Source: Myxococcota bacterium
GTDB lineage: Bacteria > Myxococcota_A > UBA796 > UBA2385
NCBI GenBank assembly: GCA_044344255.1
Contig: JBIJDH010000022.1
Location: 76,044-140,043 of the forward strand
Reading direction: 5' to 3'
DNA length: 64,000 nucleotides
The notes below the pieces were generated by a model. The model did not search any database and was not told where the DNA came from. It saw only the letters and a list, made by a program, of their open reading frames with translations. The position numbers and the translations under genes were made by a program. Positions within the stretch are counted from its first letter, which is position 1; every line of letters starts with the position of its first letter. Below, piece by piece: positions 2,526-61,200 of this stretch.

Positions 2526-4322
2526 CTATCCGCCGAGCCGCTCCAACATCGCCGAGCAGCGGCCCTGCTCCGCTCCCTCGAGGCGCGGGCAGGCCGAGCC
2601 GAGCACCCGCCGGGCGTCCTCCCGCCGCTCGGCCTCGGCGAGCTTGGAGCCGAACCAATAGAGGTCAGTCGGCGAGGTGCCCGGGCGGGTGGCCACCCGG
2701 AGCGCGCCGGTCCAGTCGCCCTGCTCGACGTAGATGCGGAGGCCGAGGCCGGCGATGCCGCGGTCGAGGTCGGCGTTGTCGGAGGCCGGGGCCTGGAGCG
2801 CCTCCGCGATGAGGGCGAGCGCGCCCGCCCCGTCGTTGGCCTTCTTGCGCATCAGCGCGTGGTTGTAACGCGTGACCGTGGGCACCTTCGCCCCGGTCGT
2901 CTGGGCGAAGAGGAGGTCGGACCGCCGCAGGTCGCCGAGGTCTACCGCGCAGCCGTGGCCCATCACCGACATCTTCGCCGCGTCGCCGCCCTGCAGCTTG
3001 AGCTCCTCGAGGGCGGCCCCCACGGTAGACAGGCAACCCTCGGCGTCGCCGGCCTTTCGGAGGGCGACGGCGAGGTTGTAGCGGTCGGCCGAGTCCGTCG
3101 AGCGGCCGAGGGCCTCCCGGGCCTTCGGGCCCAGGTGCTGCGGGCTCGTGGTGGCGAGCTGCCCGGCGGCCTGGAGCAAGCGGAAGTGGCCCGGCCAGCC
3201 CGCGAGCCCGCCTTCGACGGCCGCCCCGGCCTCGGCCCCCTTGCCCTGGGCGAGCCGGAGCCGGGCGGTCGCCGCGGCGAGGTTGGCCTGGTCGCCCATG
3301 CTGCCCTTGAGCTCGCCGAGCCGCTTCTCGGCGGCGGAGTAGTCTCTTGCTTCGATGAGGAAGACCACGAGCTGCCCGGCCCCGTCCCCCATCATCTCGC
3401 GGAGGCGCGCCTCGTCGGAGGCGGTGAGGATGCCCGTCATCGTCCCGTTCTGGTGCAGATCGATCCAGGGCTTCCCTTGGAGGCCCAGCGTATAGTCGGC
3501 CTTCGCCCCCGCCCGGTCCCCCGACATCTCGCGGGCGCGGCCGCGGAGGAGGAGGGCCTGCACGTCATCGGGCCGCTCCTGGAGCAGGGGCTCGAGCACG
3601 GTCTTCACCGCGGCCCAGTCATACTCATTGGCGTGATCGACCGCCTGCGCCAGCACCACCATCCGGTCGAGCCCGAGGCGGCTGGCCACCGTGCCCACGC
3701 TGTCGACCCGCCCGCCCACCCGCGTGATGGCGGCGGCGATGAGGTCGAAGGTGGCCGCGTTCTTACAGGCGGGGAGCCGGGCCTCGGCGGTGGCGGAGTC
3801 ACCCGCCTCGGCGGCGAGCTGGACCTCGAAGCAGGCGATCACCGGGTCAGGGAGCTCGGCGCGGGCGGCCTCGATGTCGGCCCGGGCGGCCGTGAGCTCG
3901 GCGGTGCGCAGGTAGACCTGCTGTAGCGTGGCGTGGGCCTCGATCGAGCCCGGATCGGCGCTCACGGCCTTCTTCGCGTAGCTCCGCGCCGCGTCGAAGT
4001 CCTGGCGCACGAAGGCGAGCTCGGACAGGGCCACCAGCAGCTCGACCTGTCCGGGGAAGGCGAGGATGGCCGCGTCGAGGGCCGCCTTGGCCTCCTCGAG
4101 CCGCCCTTGCCGCAAGAGCGTGAGCGCGAGGCCGTGCTGGGCCATCCCGCAAGAGGGGTCCCGCGCCAGCACGGACTTGAAGGCGGCCTCGGCCTCCGAG
4201 AGGCTGCTCCCGCCGAGCGCGGCGATGCCCTTGCTGTAGGCCTTCTGGTCGCGGGCCTGGGGTGCCCAGTCGGCCCGGGCGGGCGCGAGGAGGAGCGAGA
4301 GAGACAGCAGGAGGGTCCACAT
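2526..4322 (-). CDS. Secreted tetratricopeptide-repeat protein
   Basis: Signal peptide MWTLLLSLSLLLAPARA and repeated TPR-like helices (e.g. AEAAFKSVLARDP...AQHGLALTLLRQGRLEEA). Confidence 0.8.
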   Translation of the reverse strand: MWTLLLSLSLLLAPARADWAPQARDQKAYSKGIAALGGSSLSEAEAAFKSVLARDPSCGMAQHGLALTLLRQGRLEEAKAALDAAILAFPGQVELLVALSELAFVRQDFDAARSYAKKAVSADPGSIEAHATLQQVYLRTAELTAARADIEAARAELPDPVIACFEVQLAAEAGDSATAEARLPACKNAATFDLIAAAITRVGGRVDSVGTVASRLGLDRMVVLAQAVDHANEYDWAAVKTVLEPLLQERPDDVQALLLRGRAREMSGDRAGAKADYTLGLQGKPWIDLHQNGTMTGILTASDEARLREMMGDGAGQLVVFLIEARDYSAAEKRLGELKGSMGDQANLAAATARLRLAQGKGAEAGAAVEGGLAGWPGHFRLLQAAGQLATTSPQHLGPKAREALGRSTDSADRYNLAVALRKAGDAEGCLSTVGAALEELKLQGGDAAKMSVMGHGCAVDLGDLRRSDLLFAQTTGAKVPTVTRYNHALMRKKANDGAGALALIAEALQAPASDNADLDRGIAGLGLRIYVEQGDWTGALRVATRPGTSPTDLYWFGSKLAEAERREDARRVLGSACPRLEGAEQGRCSAMLERLGG

Positions 4323-4491
4323 GGCGGGCTACCTCGTCCGATCAGCGGCGGGGTGGGAGGTCGACGTGGCAGTCTGACACGCGGGAGGCCGGGCCGTTCC
4401 CCCCGCGGCGCGGCGGCCTCGCCAAGGGGCTGTCAAGGGCAGGAGCCGACGCCGGGAGGCGACGACCGGGCAAGCTAGTTAGGTCCATGGG

Positions 4492-5688
4492 ATGACGCTC
4501 CCCGACCAGCTGATCCTCGAACGATTCCGATGCTTCCCAACCTGGGTCACGCTGCCGCTTAGTCCCATCACCCTGGTGTACGGCTCCAACAACTCAGGGA
4601 AGAGCGCGTTGCTCCGGTCGCTCGCCTTGCTCGGAGCGTCGCTCGAACCGAACGGGACCACAGCCATCCGTTTGCCCGAGCAGGCGTTCCCCGGTTGCCG
4701 CTTCCAAGACCTCGCCTGGCAGGGAGATTACGGCAGCTACGCTTGGAAGCTGGGCGTACGCTGGTCGCAGTCGGAGATTTCCGAGGCGTTGTTCACGCTC
4801 AATGGCGCAACAGACACGCCCCCCTTCATCGCCCGACTGGACTTGCGGAGCCCAGGGTCGGTCCCCCCTTGGCGAGCCATGGCCGACGAGGATCGACGGC
4901 TGATCGATCCGCGAGCCGGTACCCCGCTTCCGTTCGACGGCCTGATACCTGCCACGGACGCCTTGGACGACCTGCGAAGTCAGCTACTGCCGCTCCGCGG
5001 AAAGGTGCGCTGGCTCGCCGGGGTGCGCCAAAAGGTCCCGAGAGTCATAGAGGCCCCCACGCAAGCGATACCGTCGATGTTCGGTGATGGAGAGGGATCC
5101 GCCCACGCCGTGGCGTTCGACTCCGACCTCCGTGAGGACGTTGCGAGTTTCTACGAAAACCTCGACTCGCCACGTCGATTGGAGGTGCACGAGTCGCCGC
5201 CACTTGGTCGTTGGCTCTCCCTCAACCCGAAGAGCCAACCGCTGTGGAGGGTCCACATCAACGACACGGGGGAGGGGATGGCCCAGGTCCTCCCTGTGTT
5301 GACGCAGGCGGCCCTGACAGCCCGAGAGGGGGGCTTGCTCGCGGTTGAAGAGCCAGAGAGCCATCTCTACCCCTCGGCGCAGCGCACTTTGGCCCGACAC
5401 ATCTGCTCGCTCAGCATGCGCAACAGCTCCCCCAGGTACATCCTGGAGACTCACAGTCGCGTTTTCCTATTGGCCGTCCAATTGGAGGTCGCCAACGGAT
5501 ACCCTGCAGACAACGTACGAATCGTGTGGGTCGACCAGCTGCCCAGCGGACGAAGCAGCACCACGGTGCTCAAGCTACGCGATGACGGGCACCTCAGCGA
5601 CGGTTGGCCTCCCTCCGCGCTGGGTGAAGACCTCGCGTTAGCGCGAGAGCTGTCGAGGTTGGGTCGTCGTCGAGAGGAGGGTCGATGA
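4492..5688 (+). CDS. ABC-type (AAA_15/AAA_21) ATPase with DUF3696-like C-terminus; probable defence ATPase
   Basis: Walker A GSNNSGKS, signature-like DTGEGMAQVLP, Walker B/D-loop LAVEEPESHLYP, H-loop ILETHS and C-terminal LRDDGHLSDGWP. No transporter membrane partner nearby. Confidence 0.85.
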   Translation: MTLPDQLILERFRCFPTWVTLPLSPITLVYGSNNSGKSALLRSLALLGASLEPNGTTAIRLPEQAFPGCRFQDLAWQGDYGSYAWKLGVRWSQSEISEALFTLNGATDTPPFIARLDLRSPGSVPPWRAMADEDRRLIDPRAGTPLPFDGLIPATDALDDLRSQLLPLRGKVRWLAGVRQKVPRVIEAPTQAIPSMFGDGEGSAHAVAFDSDLREDVASFYENLDSPRRLEVHESPPLGRWLSLNPKSQPLWRVHINDTGEGMAQVLPVLTQAALTAREGGLLAVEEPESHLYPSAQRTLARHICSLSMRNSSPRYILETHSRVFLLAVQLEVANGYPADNVRIVWVDQLPSGRSSTTVLKLRDDGHLSDGWPPSALGEDLALARELSRLGRRREEGR

Positions 5689-6830
5689 TAATCCACCTTT
5701 CGAATGATCTGTTTGACCATCCAAACGAAACCGAGGACCGGACCCTTCGAAGATTGATCTCGCGCATTGCAGACGATGACGATATCCACGCGCTTCTTAT
5801 CGAGCCCGAAAGCGTTCCAGCGGACGAGCAAGATCCAATAAGGACGTGGATGAGTCGGCTTCACGAGTCCGACCAGCGTACATTCATTTCCTTGTGCAAT
5901 CATGGGCCTCTCGTTCAACAAATGAATTACCCAGGAGCACCTTCCCATCGGCCACACTGCTGGCGAAGGCCCGGACCGCTTGAGGTCCACGTCCAGCGAA
6001 GGGCTGGTAGCGACTGGAAGAGCCTCCACCTCTGCCTGTCGGACACTCTGGACCTCCTCCAAGAACCTATTCACCTATATCTTGAAAACGCTCGGCACGA
6101 CTTCCGATTTGTACACTTTCTAGGCAGCTCTCATCACCGAGCAAGCCTATCGCGCTTAGAGACGTTGCCAGCACGAATGGTAATCCATGGAGGAGGCACC
6201 GGGGAACTTCACGGGTGGCTGCGCCCGTTGGCCGAAAAGGATAACATCAGCGCGGTTGAGATGCGCCGTATTTGGAAGAGTTGGGTCCTCTTTGACAAGG
6301 ACGCAGCCGAATCCGATGCGCGACAACCGAGCGACTCTATCCTTAAGCTCATCTCTCTTTGCGAGCGGGTTTTGGCACAACACGGGGTACCCATTTCCTG
6401 GATCTGCCTCCAACGAAGAGAGATCGAGTCATACATCCCCGATGCAGGATTGCCTCGCAACACACAGAAGCGGAAAAAATTTACGCGACTCCGGGACCGT
6501 CAAGACCGGCGAGACTGGGCCTGGGCCTACGACATGAAGGGAGGATTGCGAGGCGATTTGGTTGCATCTGTTCCCAAGGCACGGAGGGATCAGCTCAATG
6601 CGATTGGCCAAGTCCCGCAGGCACAAGAATTGAAGTCACCCTTCAACCAGCTCGATCCCACGGAACGACGGGAGCTCGCGCACGGATTCGGCAACAGCGT
6701 ACTGAACGCCGCACTCACCAAGGATCCTCCTCCCGAATGGCTCGATGAGCTCGCCGCCGAGTACGACCGAGGCCCCGACTACCAGCTCCCGCGCGCCGAG
6801 CTCCTCCAATCTATATTTGACAGGATGTGA
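5685..6830 (+). CDS. Hypothetical protein with TOPRIM-like motifs; putative nuclease effector
   Basis: Overlaps the ATPase stop (ATGA). Motifs LYLENARHD, HGGGTG, VLFDKD (DxD) and LQRREIESYIP. Lower GC than the flanks. Confidence 0.6.
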   Translation: MIIHLSNDLFDHPNETEDRTLRRLISRIADDDDIHALLIEPESVPADEQDPIRTWMSRLHESDQRTFISLCNHGPLVQQMNYPGAPSHRPHCWRRPGPLEVHVQRRAGSDWKSLHLCLSDTLDLLQEPIHLYLENARHDFRFVHFLGSSHHRASLSRLETLPARMVIHGGGTGELHGWLRPLAEKDNISAVEMRRIWKSWVLFDKDAAESDARQPSDSILKLISLCERVLAQHGVPISWICLQRREIESYIPDAGLPRNTQKRKKFTRLRDRQDRRDWAWAYDMKGGLRGDLVASVPKARRDQLNAIGQVPQAQELKSPFNQLDPTERRELAHGFGNSVLNAALTKDPPPEWLDELAAEYDRGPDYQLPRAELLQSIFDRM

Positions 6831-6831
6831 G

Positions 6832-8469
6832 ATGAGCGAAATGCTTGAGCGGACCAGTTTTGACACGCCGACCCTCCCTCGCCTCGCGATCATCATCGCG
6901 GAACTCCAGCGTGGGGTCTACCAAATTCCGGAGTTTCAACGACCCTCCGTTTGGGAAGACGACCAAAGACTGGGACTGATGGACAGCATCGCGAAGGGTC
7001 TACCCATCGGTAGCATTTTGGTATGGAGGTCGTCAAAGCACGTGCTCCAAACCTATCCCAGCGTAGCCGGTATTCCGGTTCCGAGATCGCCCAAAGAGGT
7101 TGACAAGCGCACCTACCTGATCGACGGCCACCAGCGGATCTCAACCCTGTTCGGAGCACTAGTTCGGCCCACTCACCCACGCACAGGTCGAGACGCCAAG
7201 CGTTGGCCGATTTACTACGAGCTTGGTACGTCCGAGAGCCCAGCATTTAAGCTTCCTCCGGTACGTGGGGAAGTGCCAGCGCACTGGCTGCCGCTGGACA
7301 TCCTGCTCGACAACAGGGCACTCTTCCGGTTTCGCGAGAGGCTATTTGCGAAAGGAGAAGACGCCCGAGCGGACGAGGTGGAGCGAATTGCCAATGTTTT
7401 CAAAGACTACATCATACCCGTCGTTCCCCTCGTAACGGAAACATTGGACCTCGTGACCGACGCATTCGTTAGGATCAACAGTCAGGGTTCCGATATGACC
7501 GAAGCACACATGCTCCGAGCATTAACCTTTCTCAAGGGTGACATCGACACTGACCGAGGGTTCAAGCGCATTCGGGAAGCGCTCGAGCCGCTCGGCTGGG
7601 GGGAAATCCCAGACCAACCGCTGGTCAACAGTCTGAAGGCGGCGCTAGACCTAGATGTGTATCGGTCCTCTGTCACCGAAGTCAACGCTGCACTCCAAGA
7701 GAATCCCACGGCGCTGCTTCGGCTGCAAAAAGCGCTTCTCGAAGCTGTGTCCCTGCTCGCCAACATCGGGGTGCGTGGCTGGGGCGCTTTGCCGTACGCC
7801 TACCAGTTCGTCACCCTCGCCGCGCTGGCCTATCGCGATCTTGGTAGTCTGCAACGCAAGGAAGGGCCGCTGCGGCAATGGTTCTGGCGAACAACATATA
7901 CGGAGCATTTCACGGGACAAACGGGCGGACAGATTCGCCGCGAAATTGACGTGCTCTCGATGATGCCCGACGACGGGGAAGCGGATATCGCGAAGGGGGT
8001 TGATGTCCCGGCGCTTAGCGGAAAGTTTAGGCAGGGAACAGTGCGAATCAAGGCCTTCCTCCTCTTTCTCGCGAGCAAGCCGAGCACAACCGAGGCGCGG
8101 GAGCGTAGACAGGAGGTTCTCGCTAAACTGCTTGGTTCGGGACGAGAGCGGAGGGCACTGTCCCTTATCATTCCGAAACTTGGGGCTATCCCCGGGAACA
8201 TTGTGCTCGCCGAGCAAGTAGAATTGGGCACAATTCGAAAGACAATGACAAGCGGTCACCTCTCTTCGGAGCAAGCTGACGAGTTTGCCGTTCAAGGGCA
8301 GTTCGCAAACGCCTCATCTCTTGAGAGTCAGCGGACTCCGCAATGGATGGAACAGCGAACTGCGGTTCTGATCGCCGATGAAGCCACCTTCATCCGCAGC
8401 TTTGGCATCTCCATCACCGCTGGGAGCGGGGCGGAGCGGCAGGACGAGGGCGACGACGACGACGCCTGA
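6832..8469 (+). CDS. DUF262 (ParB-like/GmrSD N-terminal) domain protein
   Basis: Hallmark motifs IPEFQRPSVW, LMDSIAKGLPIGSILVW, LIDGHQRISTL and FVRINSQG. ATG 6832 follows the upstream stop by 1 nt. Confidence 0.88.
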   Translation: MSEMLERTSFDTPTLPRLAIIIAELQRGVYQIPEFQRPSVWEDDQRLGLMDSIAKGLPIGSILVWRSSKHVLQTYPSVAGIPVPRSPKEVDKRTYLIDGHQRISTLFGALVRPTHPRTGRDAKRWPIYYELGTSESPAFKLPPVRGEVPAHWLPLDILLDNRALFRFRERLFAKGEDARADEVERIANVFKDYIIPVVPLVTETLDLVTDAFVRINSQGSDMTEAHMLRALTFLKGDIDTDRGFKRIREALEPLGWGEIPDQPLVNSLKAALDLDVYRSSVTEVNAALQENPTALLRLQKALLEAVSLLANIGVRGWGALPYAYQFVTLAALAYRDLGSLQRKEGPLRQWFWRTTYTEHFTGQTGGQIRREIDVLSMMPDDGEADIAKGVDVPALSGKFRQGTVRIKAFLLFLASKPSTTEARERRQEVLAKLLGSGRERRALSLIIPKLGAIPGNIVLAEQVELGTIRKTMTSGHLSSEQADEFAVQGQFANASSLESQRTPQWMEQRTAVLIADEATFIRSFGISITAGSGAERQDEGDDDDA

Positions 8470-8535
8470 CAACCCCGCCCGAGTCGGCCCGCACTCTCCG
8501 GTGGCGTTCCCCGTTTGCCGTGGCATGTTGTCCGA

Positions 8536-8574
8536 CCTGGACGACCGCCCTGGACGACCGCCCCTGGAGACGAC
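8536..8574. repeat. Short tandem repeat CCTGGACGACCGC x2 plus a degenerate third copy containing the RBS
   Basis: Exact copies at 8536-8548 and 8549-8561, then CCCTGGAGACGAC immediately before ATG 8575. Confidence 0.8.
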
Positions 8575-11736
<3,162 letters not shown>

Positions 11737-27275: not shown

Positions 27276-28142
27276 TCAGCCGCCCCCGCCGCCTCCGGCA
27301 CCCGCAGCGGGACCCTTGGCCTCCTTGGGCAACCAGAGCGTCGTGGCGAGGCCCGCGCGCCGGAGCGCCCGGAGGCACCACCACGTGGGGTCAAAGCCGC
27401 CGTGGAGGCCGTGGCAGGCGCTGCGCGGGTAACGGTGGTGGGCGTTGTGGTAGGCCTCGCCGAGCGTGAAGGGGGCGAGCCAGGGAACGTCCCGCGAGCC
27501 CTCGCCGGTGTCGTAGGGGGCCCGCCCGAAGGCCGCGCCGTGGCAGATCGAGTTCACGGCCCAGCTCGAGTTGGTCAAGCAGAGGTGCAGGGCCCACAGC
27601 CAGAGCAGCCCCGCCGGCCCGGCGAGCCACCACAGGGCGCTGAGCTGCAGGGTGAAGAGGGAGACCGTCAGGAGGGGCCGCTCGAGGGCCATCAGGACAC
27701 GATCCTCGCGGAGGTCCTTACAGAGCTCCAGCCAGACCGGCGGGTTCCGGCCTTGGAGGCGGCGGATGTCGTGGAGCAGCGTCAGTGCCTGCTGGCCGAA
27801 GCCCGAGGCCGCGAAGAGCAGGATCGGCAAGGCCCCCAGCCGCCGCCCGAAGGCCCGCTCGAGCAGCCAGCCGGCGTGCGCCTGGAGGAGCCCGCCGTTC
27901 ACCGGGCTGTGCGGGTCTCCCGGGCCGTCGCTCTCGAGGTGGTGGTGCCGATGGAGCCCGATCCACAAGAGCGGCGGCCCCGCGTGCAGCGCCCCCAGCA
28001 GCGCGAGCGCCGCCCGCAGCGCCGGCCGCGCCGTGAAGGCCCGGTGCGTGAAGAGCCGGTGGTAGCCGAGGGTGTTGCCGAGCCCGAGCGCCACGAAGGC
28101 GGGCAGGAAGCTGGCCATCAGGAGCGCGGTCGTCGTCGTCAT
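27276..28142 (-). CDS. Membrane fatty-acid desaturase (delta-9-like)
   Basis: Three His boxes (YHRLFTH, HRHHH, HNAHH), DPHSP, VNSICH and FDPTWW. GGAG upstream of ATG 28142. Confidence 0.9.
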   Translation of the reverse strand: MTTTTALLMASFLPAFVALGLGNTLGYHRLFTHRAFTARPALRAALALLGALHAGPPLLWIGLHRHHHLESDGPGDPHSPVNGGLLQAHAGWLLERAFGRRLGALPILLFAASGFGQQALTLLHDIRRLQGRNPPVWLELCKDLREDRVLMALERPLLTVSLFTLQLSALWWLAGPAGLLWLWALHLCLTNSSWAVNSICHGAAFGRAPYDTGEGSRDVPWLAPFTLGEAYHNAHHRYPRSACHGLHGGFDPTWWCLRALRRAGLATTLWLPKEAKGPAAGAGGGGGG

Positions 28143-28333
28143 GTGTCTCCGCCCCTCCCCGGCGGCCGGCCGGCCCCCGACCGAGCCTAAGCCGTCGGCG
28201 CCGCCCCGCCCCGTGCGCGCGCCGGCCCCTCGGATGAGCGGCCGGTGAGCGGCGCGGGGCCGATCGATGCGCGCGCGCATCCCTGTCCACGCTCGTCCCA
28301 CAAACAAACGCCCGTTTTTCACGAGGGTGGCGG

Positions 28334-28349
28334 TGGCACGCACCTTGCT
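28334..28349 (+). promoter_or_regulatory. Sigma-54 (-24/-12) promoter
   Basis: TGGCACG-CACC-TTGCT matches TGGCACG-N4-TTGCW exactly (GG 28335-36, GC 28347-48). It lies about 90 nt upstream of the halogenase ATG, on the coding strand. Confidence 0.85.
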
Positions 28350-28441
28350 CACACCCTCTGCGACGGCGCACCGGCGCACTCTCCCTCTCCACTTTTCCCT
28401 CTCTCCATCACTCCCTCTGTCCATCCAGTCAGGAGCACACC

Positions 28442-30085
28442 ATGTCCGAGTCTATTCGAAATGTCCTCATCGTCGGCGGCGGGACCTCGGGATGGATGAC
28501 GGCCGCCTATCTGCGCCGCGCCCTGCCGGCGGGCGTAGCGATCACGGTGGTCGAGTCGGACCGCGTGCCCACCATCGGGGTCGGCGAGGCCACCTTCAGC
28601 ACCATCAAGCTCTTCTTCGACTACCTCGGCCTCGAGGAGCGCGAGTGGATGCCCGAGTGTAACGCCACCTACAAGATGGCCATCCGCTTCGCCGGCTGGA
28701 ACGCCGAGGGCCGCGACTTCTATCACCCTTTCCAGCGGTACGAGACGGTGGACGGCTTCTCGATCGCCGACTGGTGGCTCCGCCTGCACAAGGACAAGCC
28801 CTTTGACCGCATGTGCTTCGCCATCCCCGAGCTCTGTGAGAGCAAGCGCTCGCCCCGCTTCCTCGACGGGGAGGTCTTCGACCCCACCGTGCAGCACGCC
28901 TTCCGCCGCGAGCACATCGAGCAGCAGAACATGCTCGGCGAGCACAAGATCCAGTACCCCTATGCCTATCACTTCGACGCCGCCCTCCTCGCCCGCTTCC
29001 TGATGAAGCGCACCGTCGCCGACGGCGTCCGCCACATCCTCGACGACGTCACCCACGTCGGCCTCCGCCCGGACGGCGCCATCGGCCACATCGAGACGCA
29101 GAAGCACGGCCGCCTCGAGGCTGACCTCTACATCGACTGCACCGGCTTCGCCGGCCTGCTCATCAACAAGGCGCTCGGCACCCCCTTCATCTCGTTCAAT
29201 GACACGCTCCTCTGCGATCGCGCCGTGGCGATGCAGGTCCCCGAGGACATCGAGGACGAGGGCATTCGCCCCTACACCACCGCGACGGCCCTGTCCGCCG
29301 GCTGGGCCTGGAACATCCCGCTCTATGGCCGAAAGGGCACCGGCTACGTGTACTCGAGCCGCTTCATCAGCCCCGAGCAGGCCGAGGCCGAGCTGCGCAG
29401 CCACCTCGGCCCCGCCGCCGACGGCCTCAAGGCCAACCACATCCGCATGCGCATCGGCCGCAGCCAGGACGCTTGGGTGAAGAACTGTGTCGCCATCGGC
29501 CTCTCCAGCGGCTTCGTCGAGCCCCTGGAGTCGACCGGCATCTTCTTCATCCAGCACGGCATCGAGCAGCTCGTCACCCACTTCCCCACCAAGGACTTCG
29601 ACCCGAGCCTCATCCGCAGCTACAACCGCGGCGTCGGCGAGTGTATCGACGGCGTGCGCGACTTCCTCACGCTGCACTACTACGCCAGCACCCGCGCCGA
29701 CACGCCCTTCTGGAAGGCCACGAAGGAGGTCACCATCCCCCCGGCGCTGGCCGAGCGCCTCGCCCTCTGGAAGCAGCGCCTCCCCGACGCCATGAGCATC
29801 AACCCCGCCTACCACGGCTTTGAGGCCTACTCCTACTCGGTGATGCTGCTCGGCCTCGGCTACGTGCCCGAGGGCCCCCAGCCCGCGGTCGCCGGCGCCG
29901 ATCCCCGCCGGGCCGAGGCCGCCTTCGCCCGGCTGCGCGCCCGCACCCGCTCCCTCGTGGACAAGCTCCCCAGCCAGTTCGAGTACCTCAGCCACGTGAG
30001 CGAGTCCCGAGGCGAGCTCTCTCAGGGCGGGATGCGGCTCTATCGCCGCCCGGTCGGCGCCGAGCAGGCCGAGGCCCGGTCGTGA
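28442..30085 (+). CDS. Flavin-dependent tryptophan halogenase, PyrH/SttH (5-/6-halogenase)-like
   Basis: AGGAG RBS; GGGTSGWMTA, GVGEATFST, catalytic-Lys region CNATYKMAIRF, YPYAYHFDA, WAWNIP (WxWxIP), FVEPLESTGIFFI and YHGFEAYSY. Confidence 0.93.
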   Translation: MSESIRNVLIVGGGTSGWMTAAYLRRALPAGVAITVVESDRVPTIGVGEATFSTIKLFFDYLGLEEREWMPECNATYKMAIRFAGWNAEGRDFYHPFQRYETVDGFSIADWWLRLHKDKPFDRMCFAIPELCESKRSPRFLDGEVFDPTVQHAFRREHIEQQNMLGEHKIQYPYAYHFDAALLARFLMKRTVADGVRHILDDVTHVGLRPDGAIGHIETQKHGRLEADLYIDCTGFAGLLINKALGTPFISFNDTLLCDRAVAMQVPEDIEDEGIRPYTTATALSAGWAWNIPLYGRKGTGYVYSSRFISPEQAEAELRSHLGPAADGLKANHIRMRIGRSQDAWVKNCVAIGLSSGFVEPLESTGIFFIQHGIEQLVTHFPTKDFDPSLIRSYNRGVGECIDGVRDFLTLHYYASTRADTPFWKATKEVTIPPALAERLALWKQRLPDAMSINPAYHGFEAYSYSVMLLGLGYVPEGPQPAVAGADPRRAEAAFARLRARTRSLVDKLPSQFEYLSHVSESRGELSQGGMRLYRRPVGAEQAEARS

Positions 30086-31269
30086 TCGCCGCCGACCGCG
30101 CGGTGGGCTCGGCCCGCGCTCGACAGATGCCGATGCCGCCCATCCGCGCCATCTTCGAGGCCGCCTCCCGCATGGAGGACATCGTGCGCCTCGAGGTGGG
30201 CGAGCCGGACTTCGGCCCCCCCGCCTGGCTCCGCGAGGCCCACATCGACGCGCTGCGGCGCGACAGCTCGCACTACACCTCCTTCAGCGGCCTCCTGGCC
30301 CTGCGCGAGGCCATCGCCCAGAAGCTGGCACGAGAGAACGGGATCACCCGGGACCCGGCGACCGAGATCCTCGTCACCTCGGGGGCCACCGGCGCGCTCT
30401 ATCAGGCGCTCCAGGCCACCGTGGACCCGGGCGATGAGGTGCTCCTCCCGGCGCCGGGCTGGCCCCAGTACATGGCGTCTACGGCCCTCGCGGGCGGCGT
30501 GCCGGTCTTCTATCCGCTACACGCGGCCAATGGTTTCGTCCCGCGGGCCGAGGACATTGCGCGCCTCATCACCCCGCGCACCCGCGTCCTCCTGCTCAAT
30601 TCGCCCGGGAACCCGACCGGCGGCGTGATCGACGCCGCGACCCTCCAGGCGCTCGCCGCCCTCGTCCAGCAGCACAACCTCGTGCTCATCTCCGACGAGG
30701 TCTATGAGCACATCCGCTTCGACGGGGCGGCGCACCTGAGCCCGGCCGCGCTCCCGGGGATGGCCGAGCGCACCCTCACGCTCCACAGCGCGTCCAAGAC
30801 CTTCGCGGTCACCGGCTGGCGCATCGGCTTCGCCGCCGGCCCCGCCGCCCACATCGGGCCGATGACGAAGATCGGCCTCTCCACCTGCACCCACCCGAGC
30901 ACCCCCGCCCAGCACGCCTGTGTGGCGGCCTATCGACGGAGCGCGGAGGGGGACATCTCCCGGATGGTCGACACGCTCCGGCAGCGGCGGGACTTCCTCT
31001 GTGACAGCCTCTCCGCGATGCCCGGCCTCCGCTGCACCCGGCCCGCCGGCGCCTTCTATGTGTTCGTGAACATCGAGGGCACCGGGCTCGACTCCGAGAG
31101 CCTCTCCTGGCACCTGCTCCGCAGCGCCGGCGTCTCGACCGTGCCCGGGGTCGGCTTTGGCCCCGGGGGAGAGGGCTTCATCCGCCTCTCCTTCGCCGCC
31201 TCGATGACCGAGCTCGAGCGGGGGGTCGAGCGGATCCACCGGGCGCTCTCCCAGCTCGCGCACGGCTGA
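30082..31269 (+). CDS. PLP-dependent class I/II aminotransferase
   Basis: GTGA overlap with the halogenase stop; LEVGEPDF, LNSPGNPTG, ISDEVYEH, SASKTFAVTGWRIG (PLP Lys), PAGAFY and IRLSFA. Confidence 0.93.
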   Translation: MIAADRAVGSARARQMPMPPIRAIFEAASRMEDIVRLEVGEPDFGPPAWLREAHIDALRRDSSHYTSFSGLLALREAIAQKLARENGITRDPATEILVTSGATGALYQALQATVDPGDEVLLPAPGWPQYMASTALAGGVPVFYPLHAANGFVPRAEDIARLITPRTRVLLLNSPGNPTGGVIDAATLQALAALVQQHNLVLISDEVYEHIRFDGAAHLSPAALPGMAERTLTLHSASKTFAVTGWRIGFAAGPAAHIGPMTKIGLSTCTHPSTPAQHACVAAYRRSAEGDISRMVDTLRQRRDFLCDSLSAMPGLRCTRPAGAFYVFVNIEGTGLDSESLSWHLLRSAGVSTVPGVGFGPGGEGFIRLSFAASMTELERGVERIHRALSQLAHG

Positions 31270-31322
31270 GCGCCCTCTCGCCCCGCCCCTCTCGCCTCCT
31301 CCCCTCCGCCTCCGGAGCCGTC

Positions 31323-32459
31323 ATGTTCAGCCTCTCGCTCGACGCCACCCCCGCCTACTCCCCTCGCTCCGCGGCCCCCTCCCTCTCCGCGCGCCTGCAA
31401 GCCGCCGCGCGGCTGGTCGACGCGCAGGACCCCGCCGCCGAGGCCGCGCTCGCGGCGCTCCGCTCCGACACGGAGGCCGCGCAGGGCCCCGAGGAGCGGC
31501 TCGCCCGCCTCTTCTTGGGTGCGCTCGAGGCGCGGCGGGCGGGCCTCGCCGCCGACCTCGGCAACCTCTACGGCGGCGGCGCCGGCCCCGCCGAGATGCT
31601 CGGCGCCTTCGAGGCCTTCGTCCAGGACACCCCGCTCGTCCGCTTTGCACACCACGCCGCCAACGCGGCCCACCTCGCGGCCATCGGCGACGCCGCCGCC
31701 GTCCGCATCATCGACGTCGGCCTCGGCTTCGGCAGCCAGTGGGAGCCCCTCCTCCAGGCCCTCGCCCGCCGCCCCGGCGGCCCGCCCGCGGTGCACCTCG
31801 TCGGCATCGACCTCCCCGCCCCCGGGGCAGACCCGGCCGCCGGGCTCACCGCGGTCGGGGCCCGCCTCGCTCGCCTCGCCGAGGGCTGCGGCGTACCCTT
31901 CACCTTCACCGCGCTCCCCGGGCGCGTCGAGGACCTGCCGCTGCCCGAAGTCGAGCCCGGCGAGCGCCTCACCATCAACGCCGCCTTCGCGCTCCACCAC
32001 ACCGGCCCCCTCGATCGCGACCCCACGCTGGCGCGCCTCGCGGCCACCGGCGCCCACGCCATCGTGCTCTGCGAGCCCGAGGCGGACCACGACGCGCCGG
32101 CCTTCCCGGCCCGCCTCCGCGCCGCGCTCCGCCACTACGGGCTCGTCTTCGACGTCCTCGACCGCTGCCTCCGCGAGCGCCCGGCCGCCCGGGCCGTCAT
32201 CGAGGGGCAGTTCTTCGGTCGCGAGATCCACAACGTCGTCGTCGGCGAAGGCGCCGCGCGGGTCGAACGCCACGCGCCCCACGCCGACTGGTCCCGCCGC
32301 CTCCGGGCCGCCGGCCTGTCGCCGGTCTCCCTCCGCACGAGGCCGGACAGCCAGCTCCGGCTCCCCGACGGCGTCGCGGTGGTGCCCCTGGGCTCGGCCA
32401 CGGCCCTCACCGTGGATGGAGAGCCCCTGGTGGTGGTCTCGGCGTGGCAGCCGAACTGA
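31323..32459 (+). CDS. Stand-alone bacterial GRAS-domain protein
   Basis: GRAS motifs in order: ERLARLFLGALEAR (LHRI); PLVRFAHHAAN and VRIIDVGLGFGSQWEPLLQALARRPGGPPAVHLVGID (VHIID); GARLARLAEGCGVPFTF (LHRII); RLRAALRHYGLVFDVLD (PFYRE); REIHNVVVGEGAARVERH...WSRRLRAAG; terminal VSAW. GGAG RBS. Confidence 0.93.
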   Translation: MFSLSLDATPAYSPRSAAPSLSARLQAAARLVDAQDPAAEAALAALRSDTEAAQGPEERLARLFLGALEARRAGLAADLGNLYGGGAGPAEMLGAFEAFVQDTPLVRFAHHAANAAHLAAIGDAAAVRIIDVGLGFGSQWEPLLQALARRPGGPPAVHLVGIDLPAPGADPAAGLTAVGARLARLAEGCGVPFTFTALPGRVEDLPLPEVEPGERLTINAAFALHHTGPLDRDPTLARLAATGAHAIVLCEPEADHDAPAFPARLRAALRHYGLVFDVLDRCLRERPAARAVIEGQFFGREIHNVVVGEGAARVERHAPHADWSRRLRAAGLSPVSLRTRPDSQLRLPDGVAVVPLGSATALTVDGEPLVVVSAWQPN

Positions 32460-32522: not shown

Positions 32523-33926
32523 TCAGCCCCGCCGACGCAGCCCGAGGGCCAGCCCAAAGAGGCCGAGGCCGACGAGGCCGGTGACCGGAGCGCGAGGCGC
32601 GGAGGCACAGCCGCAGCCGGCCTTCTCCGCGGGCTCCGCGGCGCCGCCGCCATCCTCGGCGGCGCCGTCGGCCCCGTCGGCCCCGTCGGCGCCGCCCGCC
32701 CCGTCGGCGCCGTCCGCGCCGTCCGCGCCGTCGCTGCCGCCGCTGTCACCCTCCCCGCTGGTGTCACAGAGCTCGATACACTCGCGATTGGCGGTGGTGT
32801 CGTCGGCGAAGCTCAGCACCTTGTCTTCGAGGATGTTCGAGGTGTAGAAGATGAGGTCAGCGGAGGCCTGCTCGGGGGTGTAGCGCATCCGCATGCGGGT
32901 CATGAAGTGACTGTCAAAGGCCCCGACGAAGCCCAGGTCCTGGAGGTCCTGCTCGGTCGGATAGACGCCGGTGCAGGGGTTGCAGGAGGAGATGCCTCCG
33001 CTGAACTCGGTGGTCCAGCCCGCGGTGCCGGTGGCGGCCCAGGCGCTCGTGAAGCGCTCCTCGTAGAAGGCCTTGAAGTCGTCGGTGGGGGCGCCCCAGA
33101 TGCAGCGGTCGGGGACGTCGAACTCTGTGTAGTTCGAGATGCCCACCTTCCCCGCCGCGCCGTCTACGATGGTGTAGATCACCATGTCCTGGCTGCCCGG
33201 GGAATTGAGCGTGGCGAGGCGAATGGGGACGGAGAAGACCTCGCTCTCATAGGAGACCTGGAGCGGCGACAGGGACGAGCCGTCGGCCATCGCTGCGGTG
33301 TCGGCCACCTGGGCCGCGAAGAAGAAGCTGCCGGCCTCGATGTACTCGGCGAGGATAGGGTCCGCGCCGGGGGCGAGCTGGAAGCCGTGCCCGTCGAGCC
33401 ACTCCTGGAGCGCGCCCGACTCCTCGGCCGAGAGGATGAAGACCCGGTACTCCCCCACGAGGTACTCCGCGACCACGTCCACCTCGCCGTCGTCTCCGCC
33501 GCCGCCCCCGGCGCCGTCTCCGCCCTCGGCGTTGGAGGGGATGCAGCCGGCGTCCGAGACGTGGCGGGGCCCCGTGTAGCCGTCGAGGCGGGCGAAGACC
33601 TCGGCGTCGAGGGTCTTGACCTCCTCCTCGGAGGGCACCTCGGGGACCGGGAGGAGGAGCGCGAAGTCTTGCGGCTCCCCGCTCGGGTTGACCGACACCG
33701 AGAAGGTGGTGCGGTTGCCCTGTCGCACCAGGGCGAGCCGCGCGACGTCAAAGCTGAGCTGGGAGGGGGTGCCGGTGACCAGCGTGGGGCAGGCCCAGGC
33801 CGAGCCGCCCACCGCCGAGAGGGCGAGGAGGAGGGACAGGGTGAGGCGCGCGGGGCGGGGCAGGGCGGTGGGCACGGGGGCTCCGGGGCGAGGGCGAGGC
33901 CCCGAGGATAGCCGGGCGTCGCTCAA
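32523..33926 (-). CDS. DUF2330-like surface protein with (GAD)n linker and MYXO-CTERM-like tail
   Basis: Signal ending AWAC, DFALLLPVP, LQEWLDGHGF, PLQVSY..IPIRL-like motif; C-terminus GCGCAS + hydrophobic helix + RRRG. Confidence 0.8.
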   Translation of the reverse strand: MSDARLSSGPRPRPGAPVPTALPRPARLTLSLLLALSAVGGSAWACPTLVTGTPSQLSFDVARLALVRQGNRTTFSVSVNPSGEPQDFALLLPVPEVPSEEEVKTLDAEVFARLDGYTGPRHVSDAGCIPSNAEGGDGAGGGGGDDGEVDVVAEYLVGEYRVFILSAEESGALQEWLDGHGFQLAPGADPILAEYIEAGSFFFAAQVADTAAMADGSSLSPLQVSYESEVFSVPIRLATLNSPGSQDMVIYTIVDGAAGKVGISNYTEFDVPDRCIWGAPTDDFKAFYEERFTSAWAATGTAGWTTEFSGGISSCNPCTGVYPTEQDLQDLGFVGAFDSHFMTRMRMRYTPEQASADLIFYTSNILEDKVLSFADDTTANRECIELCDTSGEGDSGGSDGADGADGADGAGGADGADGADGAAEDGGGAAEPAEKAGCGCASAPRAPVTGLVGLGLFGLALGLRRRG

Positions 33927-41534: not shown

Positions 41535-41563
41535 TTGACACTTCTTCCAGCGCGAGACATATT
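41535..41563 (+). promoter_or_regulatory. Putative sigma-70 promoter for the NtrC-family gene
   Basis: TTGACA (41535-40), 17-nt spacer, CATATT (41558-63); 25 nt upstream of ATG 41589. Confidence 0.6.
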
Positions 41564-41588
41564 GTCATCACCCGTGACAAGGTGGCCC

Positions 41589-42947
<1,359 letters not shown>

Positions 42948-55231: not shown

Positions 55232-58200
55232 ATGTCCCGCCCTGTAGAGCCCATCGCCATCATCGGCCTCGCCTGCCGTTACCCGGGCGCGCCCGACGCC
55301 CGAGCGCTCTGGGAGAACATCCTGGCTCGACGCCAGCAGTTCCGGCAGATGCCCGACTGCCGGCTGCCGATCGCCGACTACCACAGCCTCGACCGGGCGG
55401 TGGAGGATGTGACCTACGGCAAGCGGGCCGCGGTCATCGATGGTTGGAGCTTCGATCCGGCCGCCCATCGGGTGCCCCGCTCCTCCTTTGAGTCCACCGA
55501 TGTGGTGCATTGGCTCACCCTCGACATCGCCAAACAGGCGGTGGAGAGCGCCGGCCTCAACCTCGACGGCATGGACCGCGACCGCATCGGCATGGTCCTC
55601 GGCAACACGCTCACCGGAGAGGAGACCCGCGCCAACACCATGCGCCTCCGCTGGCCCACGCTCCGGCGGGCGCTCCGCCACGCCGCGCTCGCCACCGGCC
55701 TCGACCCCGACGAGGGCCCTGAGCTGGAGCTGGCGCTCGAACAGACCTGGAAGAGCATCTTCCCGCGGATCACCGAGGACTCCCTGGCCGGCGGCCTCGC
55801 CAACACCATCGCCGGGCGGGTGTGCAACGTCCTCGATCTGCACGGCGGCGGCTGGGTGGTGGACGGAGCCTGCTCCTCCTCGCTGCTCGCCGTAGCCACC
55901 GCCGCCGAGCTCATCGCCTCCGGCCAGCTCGACATCGCGCTCTGCGGCGGGGTCGACGTCAGTCTCGACCCATTCGAGCTCGTGGGCTTCGCCAAGGCCA
56001 CCGCGCTCTCGGCCGGCGACATGAACGTCTATGACAAGCGCGGCAAGGGCTTCATCCCGGGCGAGGGCTGCGGCGTGGTGGTGCTCCAGCGCCTCGACCA
56101 CGCGCGCCGTGACGGACATCCGGTGCTGGCCCAGCTGCGCGGCTGGGGCATCTCCTCGGACGGGAAGGGGGGCATCACCGCGCCCTCTGCCCGCGGTCAG
56201 GCCCTCGCCCTCCGTCGGGCCTACGAGCGGGCCGGCTACAGCCCGCACAGCCTCGACTTCGTCGAGGGCCATGGCACCGGCACCGCGGTGGGCGACCGCG
56301 TCGAGCTCGAGGGCATCTCGGAGGCCGTCGACGCCTTCGGGGAGAAGCGGAGCCGGAGCATCGGCGTCACCTCCTTCAAGTCGATCGTGGGCCACACCAA
56401 GGCGGCGGCGGGCATCGGCGGCTTCATCAAGGCGGTGCTCGCGGTGAACCAGCGGGTGGTCCCTCCCACCGCCGGCTGTGTCGAGCCCCACACGGTCTTC
56501 GGCGAGCGGGCCCGGGCGCTCTACCCGGTGCTGCGCGGCGAGCAGCGCCCCCTCACGGACCGCCTGCGGGCCGGCGTGTCGGCGATGGGCTTCGGCGGCA
56601 TCAATTCCCACGTGACCTTGGAGAGCGGCGACGCGCCCGACCCCGCCTTCGCCCTCGGCCGCGACCCCTCCACCCTCAAGCCCTGGGAGTCGGAGGTCTT
56701 CCCGATAGCGGCGCCGAGCCGGGAGGCCCTGCTCGCCGCAGCTCAGGCCCTCTCCCTGGACGCCGCCGGCATCTCCGTCGCCGAGCTCGGCGACCTCGCC
56801 ATCCGCACCGCCGCCCGGCTCGGGCAGGGGCCCTGCCGCGCCGCGGTCGTCGCCTCCAGCCCCGATGAGCTGGTGGCGGCCCTCGGGGCCCTCCTGGTGC
56901 GGCTCCAGAGCGGTGAGCCGCTGGAGATCGATCGAAAGGTGGGCCTCTTCGCCGGGGCCAGAGCGACCGGCGAGGTCGATGCTGCGCCCCGCGTGGGCTT
57001 CCTCTTCCCCGGTCAGGGCTCCCAGCTCCTCGGCATGGCCGGCGGCCTCCTCGACCGCTACGCCTGGGCCCGGGAGCTGGCCGCGGAGGCCGATGGCTGG
57101 GTCGCGGGTTTCCCCGCCTTTCAGGCGGAGCCACTCTCCGCCTTCATGCAGCGTCCCACCTGGCGGGACCCCGCGGGTGAGTCCCAGGCCGAGTGGAAGG
57201 CGGCCCTCACCCGCACCGAGGTGGCCCAGCCGGCGATCGCGCTGGCATCGCTGCTCTGGTTCGAGCTGCTCCGTCGTGTGGGCCTGTCCCCCGCCGTGAC
57301 CGGCGGCCACAGCCTGGGCGAGCTCATGGCCCTCTGCGCCTCGGGGGCCTTCGACGCCGCCACGCTCCTGCAGATCGCGGCCCTGCGCGGCCAGGCCATG
57401 GCCGCACCCGCTGCTGACGCGGGCACGATGGCGGCCCTCGTCTGCGACCCCGCGCTCGCGCTCTCGCTCTTGGAGGGGACGGCCGCGGTGCTGGCCAACC
57501 GAAACTCCCCCGAACAGTGTGTGGTCTCCGGCACCCTCGCGGACGTGGAGCGGGTGGTGGAGCGGGCGGCCGCCGCGGGGCTCCGCGCTCGGCGCCTCAC
57601 CGTGTCGAACGCCTTTCACTCCCCCCTGGTCGCCGCCGCCGCCGCCCAGGTGGCCGCCGACCCGCGTGTCCCCCGCCGGGCCGCGGGGCTTACAACCACA
57701 ACCCTCTCCTGCACCGATGGGGCGCCGTTCTCCGCCGATGCCGACCTCCGGGCCCACCTCGGTCGTCAGATCACGGCCCCGGTCGACTTCATCCGCCTCG
57801 CCGCCGCGATGGCCGAGTCGGCCGACCTCCTCATCGAGGTGGGCCCCGGTCGGGTGCTCTCCGGGCTCGTGGAGCGCTGCGCGGTGGGCCGCGCTTGCCT
57901 GCCCGCGGAGGGACAGCCTGGGCGAGACCGCGACGCCGCGCTGCTCTTCGCGGAGGCCTTCACCCGCGGCTGCGACCTCTCCTGGTCTGCCCTCTACGAG
58001 GGGCGGTTCGCGCGGCCCTTCGTCCCCGCCCGCGAGCTGCACTTCTACGAGAACCCCTGCGAGCGGCCCTTCGCCCGGGTGGTGCTGCCCGAGCTTCAGG
58101 CCCTCCCCCGCGCGCTGCGCCTCCGCCCGGGGGGCCGGGCCTCGGGGCAGCTCGGCGAGCTCGTCACCCTGCTCAGCACCGCGCTCTCGGCCACCCACGT

Positions 58201-61200
58201 CGCGATCTACGTCTCGCAGGCCTCCTCCCTCGATCTGCTGTCGGCCCTCCCCGAGCGCAGCCGCCGGAGCCTCCCCTCCGGGCAGGGCATCGTGGCCCAG
58301 GTGCTCGCCGCTGGCCTGATGCGCGCCGTCCCCCTGCTCGCCGCGGAGCCCGGCTTTCGCCCCGAGGTGGACGGCTGGCCCGCCACCCTGCTCCAGGGCG
58401 CGCTCTACCTTCCGGTGCCCCTGGAGGCCGGCACCGCGGTGGTGATGGTGGCCCGAAGCGGCGCCGAGCCCTTCACCGAGGCCGACCAGCGCACGCTCTC
58501 CGCCCTCGCCGGCTCGGCCCGGCCCTTCATCGGACAGGCCCACCTCGAGCTCCAGGTCGAGAACGCCCACGCGCTGGAGGCGAAGCTGCGCGGCTGGGCG
58601 ACCGAGATCGAGAGGGACCAGCCGGTCTCCACCCTCATCGAGAGCTGGATCGAGGCCGCGGTCTCGTCCTATGGCACCGAGGCGGGCTCCCTCTTCCTCT
58701 ACGATCGACGCCGGGAGGAGCTCGTGAGCGTGGCGGCGGTGGCGCCCGGCGAAAAGGGCAGCCTCCGCGCCGTGACGTTACGCTTCCCCGCCAACCGGGG
58801 CATCGCCGGCCATGTGCTCACGACCGGCGAAGATGTACACATCGACGATGCGTACGGTGACCCCCGCTTCAACCCCGCCGTAGACAAACAGACGGGCTTT
58901 CGCACCCGCACCATTGACTGTATGGCCCTCGTCGACGATGCCGGGCAGGCCATCGGCGTGCTCCAGCTCCTCAACCGCGACGACCGGCGCTGGGGCCCGG
59001 CCGAGCGGGACGGCCTCCGACGCCTCGCCACGCAGCTCTCGGCCCTCCTCCGCCTCTCGAAGCTCGTGGAGGGCGTGCAGGGCAGCGTCGAGGCCCCCGC
59101 CGCAGCCCCCGCCGAGGGCGCGGCCTCTGCCGGTAGCGCCGCCTCTGCCGCGGGTGCTCCTCGGGCCCTGCTCTATGGCCTCGTCACCCGGTTGACCGGC
59201 TTCGCACTCGACTCCCTGCACGGCGGGCTCCGTCTCCTCGACGACCTGAACCTCGACTCCATCAAAGCCGGCTCGCTGCTCGCCGAGCTCGGGAAGGGGC
59301 TCGGGCTCCCCCCCGGCAAGCTCGAGGGGCTCGCGAATGGCACGCTGGACGAGATCCTCGGCCGGGTGGGCGGCTCCGCCACCGACGCGGCGGCCCTGGA
59401 GGCGAAGCTCTATGCCCTCGTAGAGGAGCGCACCGGCTTCGCCCGCTCCACCCTGCACGGCGGGCTGCGCCTCCTCGACGACCTGAACCTCGACTCCATC
59501 AAGGCGGGCTCGCTGCTCGCCGAGCTCTCGAAGGCCGCCGGCCTCTCTGCCGCCCCCGAGGGCCTCGCCAACGCCTCGCTCTCCGACATCCTGGCCCGGC
59601 TCCAGCCCTCGGCGGCAGCCGAGGTCCACATTCAGGACCCCCTGCCGCCGGCCTGGGTGCGGGACTTCACCGTCTCGTGGTCCCCCGCGCCCCTCCTCCC
59701 CCCTCCGCTTCCTCCGATGGGGGAGGCCGAGAAGGGCGATGGCGCCGGCCTCCTCGTGGTGAGCGACTCGGACGACGCCCTCCGCGTCGCCCTCCAGGCC
59801 GCACTGCCGGCCGCCCGCTTCTCCGATGACGAGACGAGCGGGATCAACGAGGAGGGCGGCCCGGTTCGCCACCTCGTGGTCCTCGCCCCCACGGGACCAC
59901 CGGATGTGGAGCGGGATGTGCGTCGGCTCGCGGTCACCCACCGCCTCCGCGAGGGGGGCCTCGACGGGGCCCTCGCCGCCATCACCTTCGTGCAGCGGGG
60001 TGATGGGCGGATGGGCCAGCAGGAGCCCGAAGGAGGGCACCACCTGGGCCTCCGCGCCTTCGCCGCCTCCGTCAGCCAGGACCGCCCCGGCCTCATCGTC
60101 CGCGCCCTCGACCTCCACCGTCACCTCTCCGATGAGGCTGCCCTCCAGGCCCTCGGCGGCGAGCTCCGCCTCCCTCGCTCCGGGGCCGCCGGGGTCGACG
60201 CCCTGGGCGCTCGCCTCGAGCCCGCCCTCCACACCCTCTCGGCGAAGGAGGCCCGCGGCGCCGTGGCGCTCCCGGGCCCGGGGGAGCTCATCCTCGTGAC
60301 CGGCGGCGCCAAGGGCATCACCGCGGAGTGCGCCCTGGCCCTCGGCCGCGAGACCGGCGCCCGCTTCGTGCTCATCGGCAGCTCCGCCGCTGAGCCCGGT
60401 GGCGAGGTGGAGGGCACGCTCCGCCGCTTCGCCGAGGCCGGCCTGCTGGCCGAGTACCGCCGCTGCGACGTCGGCGACGCCGGCGCGGTCACCGCCCTCG
60501 TCGCCGCGGTGCAAGCAGAGCGGGGGCCCATCGTGGGCTTCATCCATGGGGCCGGCCTCAACAAGCCCCGGCCGGCCGAGCAGGTGCCCGCCGAGGCGGC
60601 GCTCCGCGAGATCCGCCCGAAGCTCCTGGGCGCCACCCACTTCCTGGCAGCGCTGGAGTCGGCCCCGCCCCGCCTGATCATCGGCCTCACCTCGATCATC
60701 GGCGTGGTCGGCATGCCGGGAAATGCCTGGTACGCCTTCTCGAACGAGCGCCTCGACCTCGCCCTCCGCGACTTCGCCGCCCGCCACCCGGGCACCCACG
60801 CCGTGAGTCACGCCTGGTCGGTGTGGGATGAAGTGGGCATGGGCGTGAAGCTCGGCAGCGTCGATCACCTCGCGCAGAAGGGCATCTCCGCCATCCCGGT
60901 CGAGGAGGGCCTCCGGCACTTCCTCCGGTGGGTGAAGCGCAGCCCGCCGGACACCCAGGTGGTGATGACGAGCCGCCTCGGCGGGCTTGGGGCGGCGGGC
61001 GGGTCCCTGCCCGATCCCGGTCGATACACCGGCAGCCCCCGGGCCTTCACCCCCGGCGTGGAGTGGGTGAGCCGGGTCCGCCTGTCGGCTGACACGGACC
61101 GCTTCGTCTACGATCACGACTTCAAGGGCTCCCTGCTCTTCCCCACCGTCTACGGCCTCGAGGCCATGGGACAGGCCGTGCTCGCCGTCACCGGCCGCCC

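Follow-up and report, generated by a model that had tools for sequence, protein, structure and literature searches.

Zhang, Iyer & Aravind (2012; as cited in PMC9474926 and PMC4279901) predicted that bacterial GRAS proteins, relatives of the plant regulators DELLA, SCR and SHR, methylate small molecules, and plant GRAS proteins are thought to derive from soil bacteria (PMC9942845). No report of a reaction for any GRAS domain was found in the open-licence literature. Here we describe a three-gene operon that joins a tryptophan (Trp) halogenase, an aminotransferase and a GRAS protein on a 64,000-nucleotide (nt) stretch of Myxococcota DNA (positions 76,044 to 140,043 of contig JBIJDH010000022.1, assembly GCA_044344255.1; hereafter the window). 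The GRAS protein of this operon belongs to the same family as the predicted methylases and has the intact S-adenosylmethionine (SAM) motifs that the prediction requires. To that prediction the operon adds a pathway context that points to a substrate, and a proposed His-His site of metal-binding type.

Two described classes of methyltransferase frame the comparison. CysG and BelI transfer the methyl group to a carboxylate that neighbors a hydroxyl group, using a catalytic Ca2+ held by His122, His123 and Asp191 and contacting SAM through Gly54, Asp77 and Asp102 (PMC11408123). The operon GRAS is like them in having a His-His pair just after strand 4 and acidic SAM ligands at matching places; it differs in sequence (15–19% identity) and in its large helical cap, whereas CysG and BelI act on alkylmalates in β-lactone clusters (PMC11408123). 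In the second class, StnR and StnQ1 of streptonigrin biosynthesis provide the precedent for an aminotransferase and a methyltransferase working together on indolepyruvate (PMC4742848). StnR/StnQ1, MarI, MppJ and SgvM share with our proposal an aminotransferase paired with a SAM methyltransferase acting on an aryl-pyruvate, and a His-bound metal (PMC4742848, PMC10502145). The genetic coupling to an aminotransferase that marks the MppJ/SgvM/StnQ1 type is also seen for the operon GRAS in the window, at a second locus (L027), and in fused or adjacent form elsewhere. StnQ1, MarI, MppJ and SgvM nevertheless belong to another methyltransferase family, with an N-terminal dimerisation domain in the MppJ/SgvM/StnQ1 class, and are described as parts of large clusters with no GRAS gene; moreover, the metal-binding His244 and His296 of SgvM are far apart in sequence (PMC10502145), whereas the His pair of the operon GRAS is adjacent.

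For the halogenase, the relevant enzymes are PyrH, a Trp 5-halogenase, and SttH, a Trp 6-halogenase. The operon enzyme has all of their catalytic and Trp-binding signature residues and a PyrH-like F460-E461, but Ala rather than Thr at the third position of this motif and no partner reductase gene nearby. Among other pathways that start from Trp, that of thienodolin uses a Trp 6-halogenase. In chuangxinmycin biosynthesis, Trp is converted to its keto acid by CxnB, an aminotransferase that relies on pyridoxal 5'-phosphate (PLP) (PMC12087186). Both thienodolin and chuangxinmycin need sulfur-transfer proteins and a P450, and no GRAS protein; neither of these gene types is present among the neighbors scanned in the window and at L027. 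The parts and the pathway logic are already known. New within the open-licence literature are the gene combination and the substrate lead for a GRAS domain, neither of which was found there, and the original prediction, made from the DNA alone, had likewise named no characterised system with this gene set.

We lean, if only slightly, toward a pathway that leads from Trp to 5-halo-Trp and on to 5-halo-indole-3-pyruvate, which the GRAS protein would methylate with SAM and a His-bound metal. The gene set, its conservation, family membership and residue conservation are observed directly; we infer all reactions, their regiochemistry, the metal and the order of the steps. The halogenase would chlorinate or brominate free L-Trp, probably at C5, with its reduced flavin (FADH2) supplied by a flavin reductase whose gene lies outside the operon. 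The aminotransferase would then turn halo-Trp into halo-indole-3-pyruvate. GRAS is expected to bind a divalent metal via H225-H226 and another ligand, to chelate the 2-oxo acid and to methylate it with SAM, so that the output of the operon would be a small methylated halo-indole produced upon sigma-54 activation. By analogy with CysG/BelI, the methyl group may be placed on the carboxylate to give a methyl ester; by analogy with StnQ1/StnR, it may instead be placed on C3 to give a β-methyl keto acid, which the same aminotransferase would re-aminate to β-methyl-halo-Trp. Either site taken singly is a tentative assignment, and the two are about equally likely: the methyl ester is favored because the structural matches lean to CysG/BelI, and C3-methylation with re-amination is favored because a dedicated or fused aminotransferase would be needed.

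The three open reading frames (ORFs) lie on the + strand. The halogenase (28442–30085, 547 amino acids (aa)) matches PF04820 at 490 bits, the aminotransferase (30082–31269, 395 aa) matches PF00155 at 237 bits, and GRAS (31323–32459, 378 aa) matches PF03514 at 216 bits over model positions 4–374 of 374. The aminotransferase begins with a GTG that overlaps the TGA of the halogenase by 4 nt; 53 nt separate the aminotransferase stop from the GRAS start. No terminator-like site on the + strand was found inside the three-gene unit, and a sigma-70/terminator scan gave nothing above chance. The 8.18-Mb, 95%-complete genome harboring the window has a single GRAS gene and a single strong halogenase, that of the operon. 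A MYXO-CTERM match and the labels of related sequences are in line with its placement in Myxococcota. The co-orientation, overlap and gap are as originally predicted. Also confirmed are the consensus sigma-54 promoter, which is an exact match with its motif kept at L027; the opposite-strand flanks, a desaturase gene and a DUF2330/MYXO-CTERM gene both on the − strand; and the absence of a nonribosomal peptide synthetase, no domain of which occurs in the 10 window proteins scanned with Pfam.

A species-genome scan with a 22-row GRAS alignment yielded 30 loci, one of which, L027 (the same locus as G127), holds a complete triplet in a different family of the same order. Its halogenase, aminotransferase and GRAS are 87, 84 and 73% identical to those of the window, with the same 4-nt overlap, a 21-nt gap before GRAS and unrelated neighbors. 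Across the order (154 genomes including the window's own), GRAS is present in 9 genomes and this halogenase orthologue in 2. Differences between the window and L027 at the three codon positions number 46/35/158, 52/28/138 and 60/51/141 in the three genes, and this third-position excess in every gene indicates purifying selection. In a protein collection, each gene forms an orthologue group with a sharp boundary: 7 halogenase clusters at 80–87% identity before a drop to 67%, 8 aminotransferase clusters at 77–84% before 58%, and 9 GRAS clusters at 67–75% before 48%, with a separate search adding the fusion protein P0050 at 57%. One member of each group (P0199, P0321 and P0003) carries the common source entry "2 contigs, longest 10453", and P0202 and P0323 share the source entry figure 4539; the termini within both sets are compatible with the same 4-nt overlap, which suggests that they represent further triplet copies. 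A metagenome scan with a single GRAS protein returned 10 distant GRAS loci and zero triplets, a sample of 401 genomes of the phylum queried with the window aminotransferase gave no additional orthologue, and the ESM Atlas returned GRAS clusters and nothing else. Judged from these sequences, the three genes are a rare but real, conserved operon, presumably co-transcribed. Three RNA runs from the same study contain short motif matches only and say nothing about expression.

The promoter, TGGCAC-N5-TTGCT (−24/−12; 28334–28349, + strand), has zero mismatches and is the sole match in the window. Such a motif is weak by itself because 0.83 one-mismatch matches are expected by chance per window; the exact consensus occurs in 42 genome copies versus about 4 expected, rpoN is found in both the window's genome and that of L027, and a sigma-54 motif also precedes the L027 triplet. 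A perfect 16-bp palindrome (28266–28281), partly a CG repeat, has its center 60 nt upstream of the promoter's −24 element. L027 has a perfect 18-bp palindrome at the same −60 position, with symmetric changes relative to the window copy. A palindrome of this kind occurs in 0.9% of random 200-nt genome stretches, and one with arms of at least 8 accompanies 1 of the 42 consensus promoters. The palindrome is a candidate site at which a sigma-54 activator may bind; a gene for an activator of this type lies at 41535–42947 of the window. As separate observations, an identical 14-bp palindrome, possibly another activator site, stands in G000 121 and 145 nt upstream of two other sigma-54 consensus promoters (C69 near 28371 and C75 near 3644), and four imperfect tandem copies of an approximately 50-nt unit lie in the intergenic region upstream of the triplet promoter at L027 (6600–6830).

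The halogenase is, by sequence, a flavin-dependent Trp halogenase of the PyrH/SttH group and is predicted to act on free Trp, as first proposed. Its best PDB matches are SttH (5hy5, 635 bits) and PyrH (2wet, 630 bits), with Thal, RebH and PrnA at about 405–422 bits. Every signature residue named in the available part of PMC5071727, the source of the PyrH/SttH signatures, is present: GxGxxG (G12–G17), WxWxIP (W288–P293), the catalytic K78 and E363, H95-P96-F97 and Y463, with Q171–F178 fitting the Q(F/Y)PYAYHF motif. Residues 460–462 are F-E-A, compared with F-E-T in PyrH and L-P-P in SttH, and so include two of the three PyrH residues. A triple mutant of SttH yielded just 32% 5-chloro-Trp, which makes this motif a partial determinant of the site (PMC5071727). 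On this basis the enzyme is probably selective for C5, a position that is favored but not fixed.

The aminotransferase belongs to the class I PLP-dependent enzymes and is predicted to be catalytically intact. Residues K239, D205, Y208, N177, R247 and R368, which we take to be the Schiff-base Lys, the PLP-binding Asp, Tyr, Asn and Arg, and the Arg that holds the α-carboxylate, are invariant across 23 aligned homologues. The best PDB match is an aromatic aminotransferase (1dju), and G-A-T at positions 101–103 is without the Lys that we presume to mark enzymes for acidic substrates. The protein scores under every NCBIfam cut-off among the 25 matches listed, and other homologues in the window genome are at most 33% identical to it. 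Its aromatic or Trp specificity is something we infer from the operon context.

The link between GRAS and an aminotransferase extends beyond the triplet. The 30 loci comprise one triplet, three with a HisC-type gene directly upstream, three fusions, one at a contig edge and 22 without an aminotransferase. A PF00155 partner is therefore fused to or directly upstream of GRAS at 7 of 30 loci; treating the Sorangium loci (18) as one and omitting the contig-edge locus makes this 7 of 12. A separate protein search added four HisC-type–GRAS fusions (P0050, P0061, P0068 and P0129). The fusions, with frames of 716–774 aa (also L051:8780–10936, L053:8963–11104, L054:8906–11086, L107 and L110–L136), keep the catalytic Lys motif and come from the G496 family plus several other lineages. 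In the G496 family, GRAS is present in 27 of 201 sampled genomes; fusions make up 27 of the 28 matches and represent one lineage and not 27 events. In three Pontibacter genomes, the fused HisC-type domain is a second copy alongside a better hisC. Because the window aminotransferase is just 26–30% identical to the HisC-type partners, the partner appears to have been replaced while the pairing was kept.

This comparison also bears on the strongest alternative, in which the true substrate of the aminotransferase–GRAS pair is a 2-oxo or 2-hydroxy acid without an indole, or that of the halogenase is another aromatic, so that the product is not a simple halo-indole. We consider this unlikely, although it deserves the most weight among the rivals. 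Wherever else the pair was seen among the loci examined, no halogenase accompanies it, the aminotransferase rises above no curated family cut-off among the matches listed, and CysG and BelI work on alkylmalates (PMC11408123). Set against these points are the matched orthologue groups of the three genes with their sharp identity drops, the whole Trp pocket signature kept in the halogenase, and the aminotransferase itself, which comes from a different subfamily than the usual HisC-type partner, as expected if it were recruited for a new substrate.

In the preferred pathway, the GRAS protein would act as a methyltransferase. Its structure model has a predicted local distance difference test score (pLDDT) of 90.8 and matches solved plant GRAS structures with Z scores of 38–41. 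The top non-GRAS matches are CysG and BelI (9fcx, 9fce; Z 17.9–18.2, root-mean-square deviation (rmsd) 2.6–2.7, 205–210 residues aligned), followed within 1 Z by EgtD (4pio; 17.9, rmsd 4.5, 236 aligned), CmoA (17.8) and MM_2633 (17.2). On the model, the motif D131-x-G-x-G-x-G137, D163 and E203 sit on the strands as a class I SAM methyltransferase requires, namely D/E-x-G-x-G-x-G after strand 1, an acid ending strand 2 and an acid after strand 3. Column counts were made on 196 of 203 domains, after 7 duplicate or partial rows had been dropped, with bacterial and plant labels assigned by hand from length, motif and tree. D-x-G-x-G-x-G together with D/E163 is found in 9/9 rows of the triplet clade, 58/62 near bacterial rows, 8/18 distant rows (the other 10 having Glu in the first motif position) and 8/107 plant rows. 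Among 89 bacterial rows, residues H225, H226, E251, H256, H271 and H317 are present in 88, 86, 89, 89, 86 and 87; among 107 plant rows, the corresponding counts are 45, 28, 48, 37, 49 and 39. E315 is retained in both groups.

The H225-H226 pair directly follows strand 215–221, which is the His-His placement of CysG/BelI. Read by eye from a supplement gene, the BelI segment S-G-L-A-I-H-H-L resembles A-A-F-A-L-H-H-T of GRAS. By topology and spacing, G133, D163, E203/D204 and H225-H226 would match the SAM and metal places of CysG/BelI, and E315, E251, H256, H271 and H317 are conserved candidates for the third metal ligand, the equivalent of Asp191. Neither the model of GRAS residues 98–276 nor a short profile gave a residue-level alignment to SgvM or CysG, leaving the equivalents of SgvM H296 and of CysG/BelI Arg22 unplaced; the A4 profile of GRAS (113–143) meets 3dtn (105–134) in a weak match (E 1.1), and the genomes searched held no BelI-like bridging protein. 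Based on sequence and model, the operon GRAS is a stand-alone domain and a candidate metal-dependent SAM methyltransferase. The methyltransferase role offered in the original prediction accordingly stands in part: the SAM site is intact and the coupling to an aminotransferase recurs, but the analogy drawn there with indolepyruvate C-methyltransferases has an equally likely competitor, since CysG/BelI (Z of about 18) and not SgvM (Z 15.6–15.8) head the fold matches outside GRAS.

The same structural ranking is where a further alternative arises, in which GRAS methylates nitrogen, either the amino group of halo-Trp, as in EgtD, or the indole N, while the aminotransferase degrades or recycles. 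EgtD 4pio is tied with CysG/BelI at Z 17.9; in addition, the partners fused to GRAS elsewhere belong to the HisC family, and EgtD, according to PDB titles, acts on histidine. The EgtD fit is nonetheless looser (rmsd 4.5 versus 2.6), and N-methylation offers no reason for an aminotransferase to be fused to GRAS repeatedly, so that we judge it improbable.

In GRAS trees (FastTree, 102 rows; IQ-TREE, 48 rows with the distant group as root), the triplet proteins form one clade (100/100), which joins the fusion P0050 and L024 (100/99). Aminotransferase-linked GRAS proteins occur on every main sub-branch. Plant GRAS proteins fall within this bacterial subfamily too (100/100 versus the distant root group), on a different sub-branch that lies, with weak support, close to other HisC-linked rows; a placement of the triplet GRAS as their nearest relative was rejected for this reason. 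At L024 (4668–9827, G010), one strand encodes GRAS, then a 910-aa protein that by eye looks like a DNA-binding ATPase/TPR regulator and has no Pfam match, and lastly a HisC-type gene that shares 53% identity with the fusion domain of P0050. The Sorangium GRAS genes (L030–L046, L055) stand alone; at L033, GRAS lies downstream of a gene for an FHA/sigma-54 activator, at a distance of about 1 kb.

Such neighbors lend some color to the receptor role suggested in the original prediction, in which GRAS would catalyze nothing and would instead sense the halogenated, auxin-like product as a receptor or regulator: a Sorangium copy alone beside an FHA/sigma-54 activator, a regulator-like protein (by eye) adjoining L024, and plant GRAS regulators as the closest solved relatives (Z of about 40). 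We give this role little credence. The 378-aa protein consists of PF03514 only, lacking an output domain, a DNA-binding domain and any long N-terminal one, and its SAM motifs and His/Glu set, fully kept here, are near-invariant in bacteria and eroded in plant regulators. That the three genes are chance neighbors on a mobile island, with no common pathway, is very improbable: their distribution is patchy (2/154 genomes of the order), but order, overlap, promoter and palindrome are the same in two families amid unrelated flanks and under purifying selection.

Several observations weigh against the halo-indole-3-pyruvate pathway as we have drawn it. The near-tied ranks of O-methylating, N-methylating and carboxy-SAM enzymes mean that the modeled GRAS fold leaves the reaction unfixed. 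The closest outside relatives of the aminotransferase (54–58%) are enzymes without an assigned function. At 22 of the 30 GRAS loci (18 Sorangium and 4 others), no aminotransferase is adjacent. In two genomes (G498 and G130), the HisC-type neighbor of GRAS could be a housekeeping enzyme, as it ranks first among the hisC matches or is the sole one. Only two triplet copies have been read as DNA, a third being suggested by matching source entries. Finally, the operon contains neither a flavin reductase nor an exporter gene; flavin reductases are encoded elsewhere in the genomes of the window and of L027.

Around the operon, a fatty-acid desaturase family gene (27276–28142, − strand) is oriented divergently to the operon promoter and separated from the start of the halogenase by 300 nt; it was considered as a part of the operon and rejected, being without a counterpart at L027. 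On the other side lies the DUF2330/MYXO-CTERM gene (32523–33926, − strand). Elsewhere in the window, the guanine-plus-cytosine content falls to 0.58–0.65 at 4001–8575, compared with about 0.73 elsewhere, and no typical gene was called between 4322 and 8575; this stretch is possibly an RNA operon or foreign DNA. A 2,809-aa ORF on the + strand (55232–63661) is without annotation here.

The operon names a candidate substrate for a GRAS protein, a halogenated indole keto-acid, and narrows the question of the GRAS reaction to three soluble genes and a few purchasable substrates. It adds an active-site hypothesis, a His-His metal site lost in plants, and the Pontibacter HisC-type–GRAS fusion offers a cultured model for bacterial GRAS function. 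If our proposal is correct, uncultured Myxococcota would possess a minimal halo-indole pathway, the intermediate of which, halo-indole-3-pyruvate, would be the precursor of plant auxin with a halogen added. More broadly, we raise as possible, though short of probable, that the members of the bacterial GRAS subfamily ancestral to DELLA, SCR and SHR are metal-dependent methyltransferases that receive aromatic 2-oxo acids from partner aminotransferases and methylate them, with this operon as the indole version acting on halo-indole-3-pyruvate. Plant GRAS proteins would then be dead enzymes, built around an ancestral pocket for an acid resembling those of the auxin pathway.

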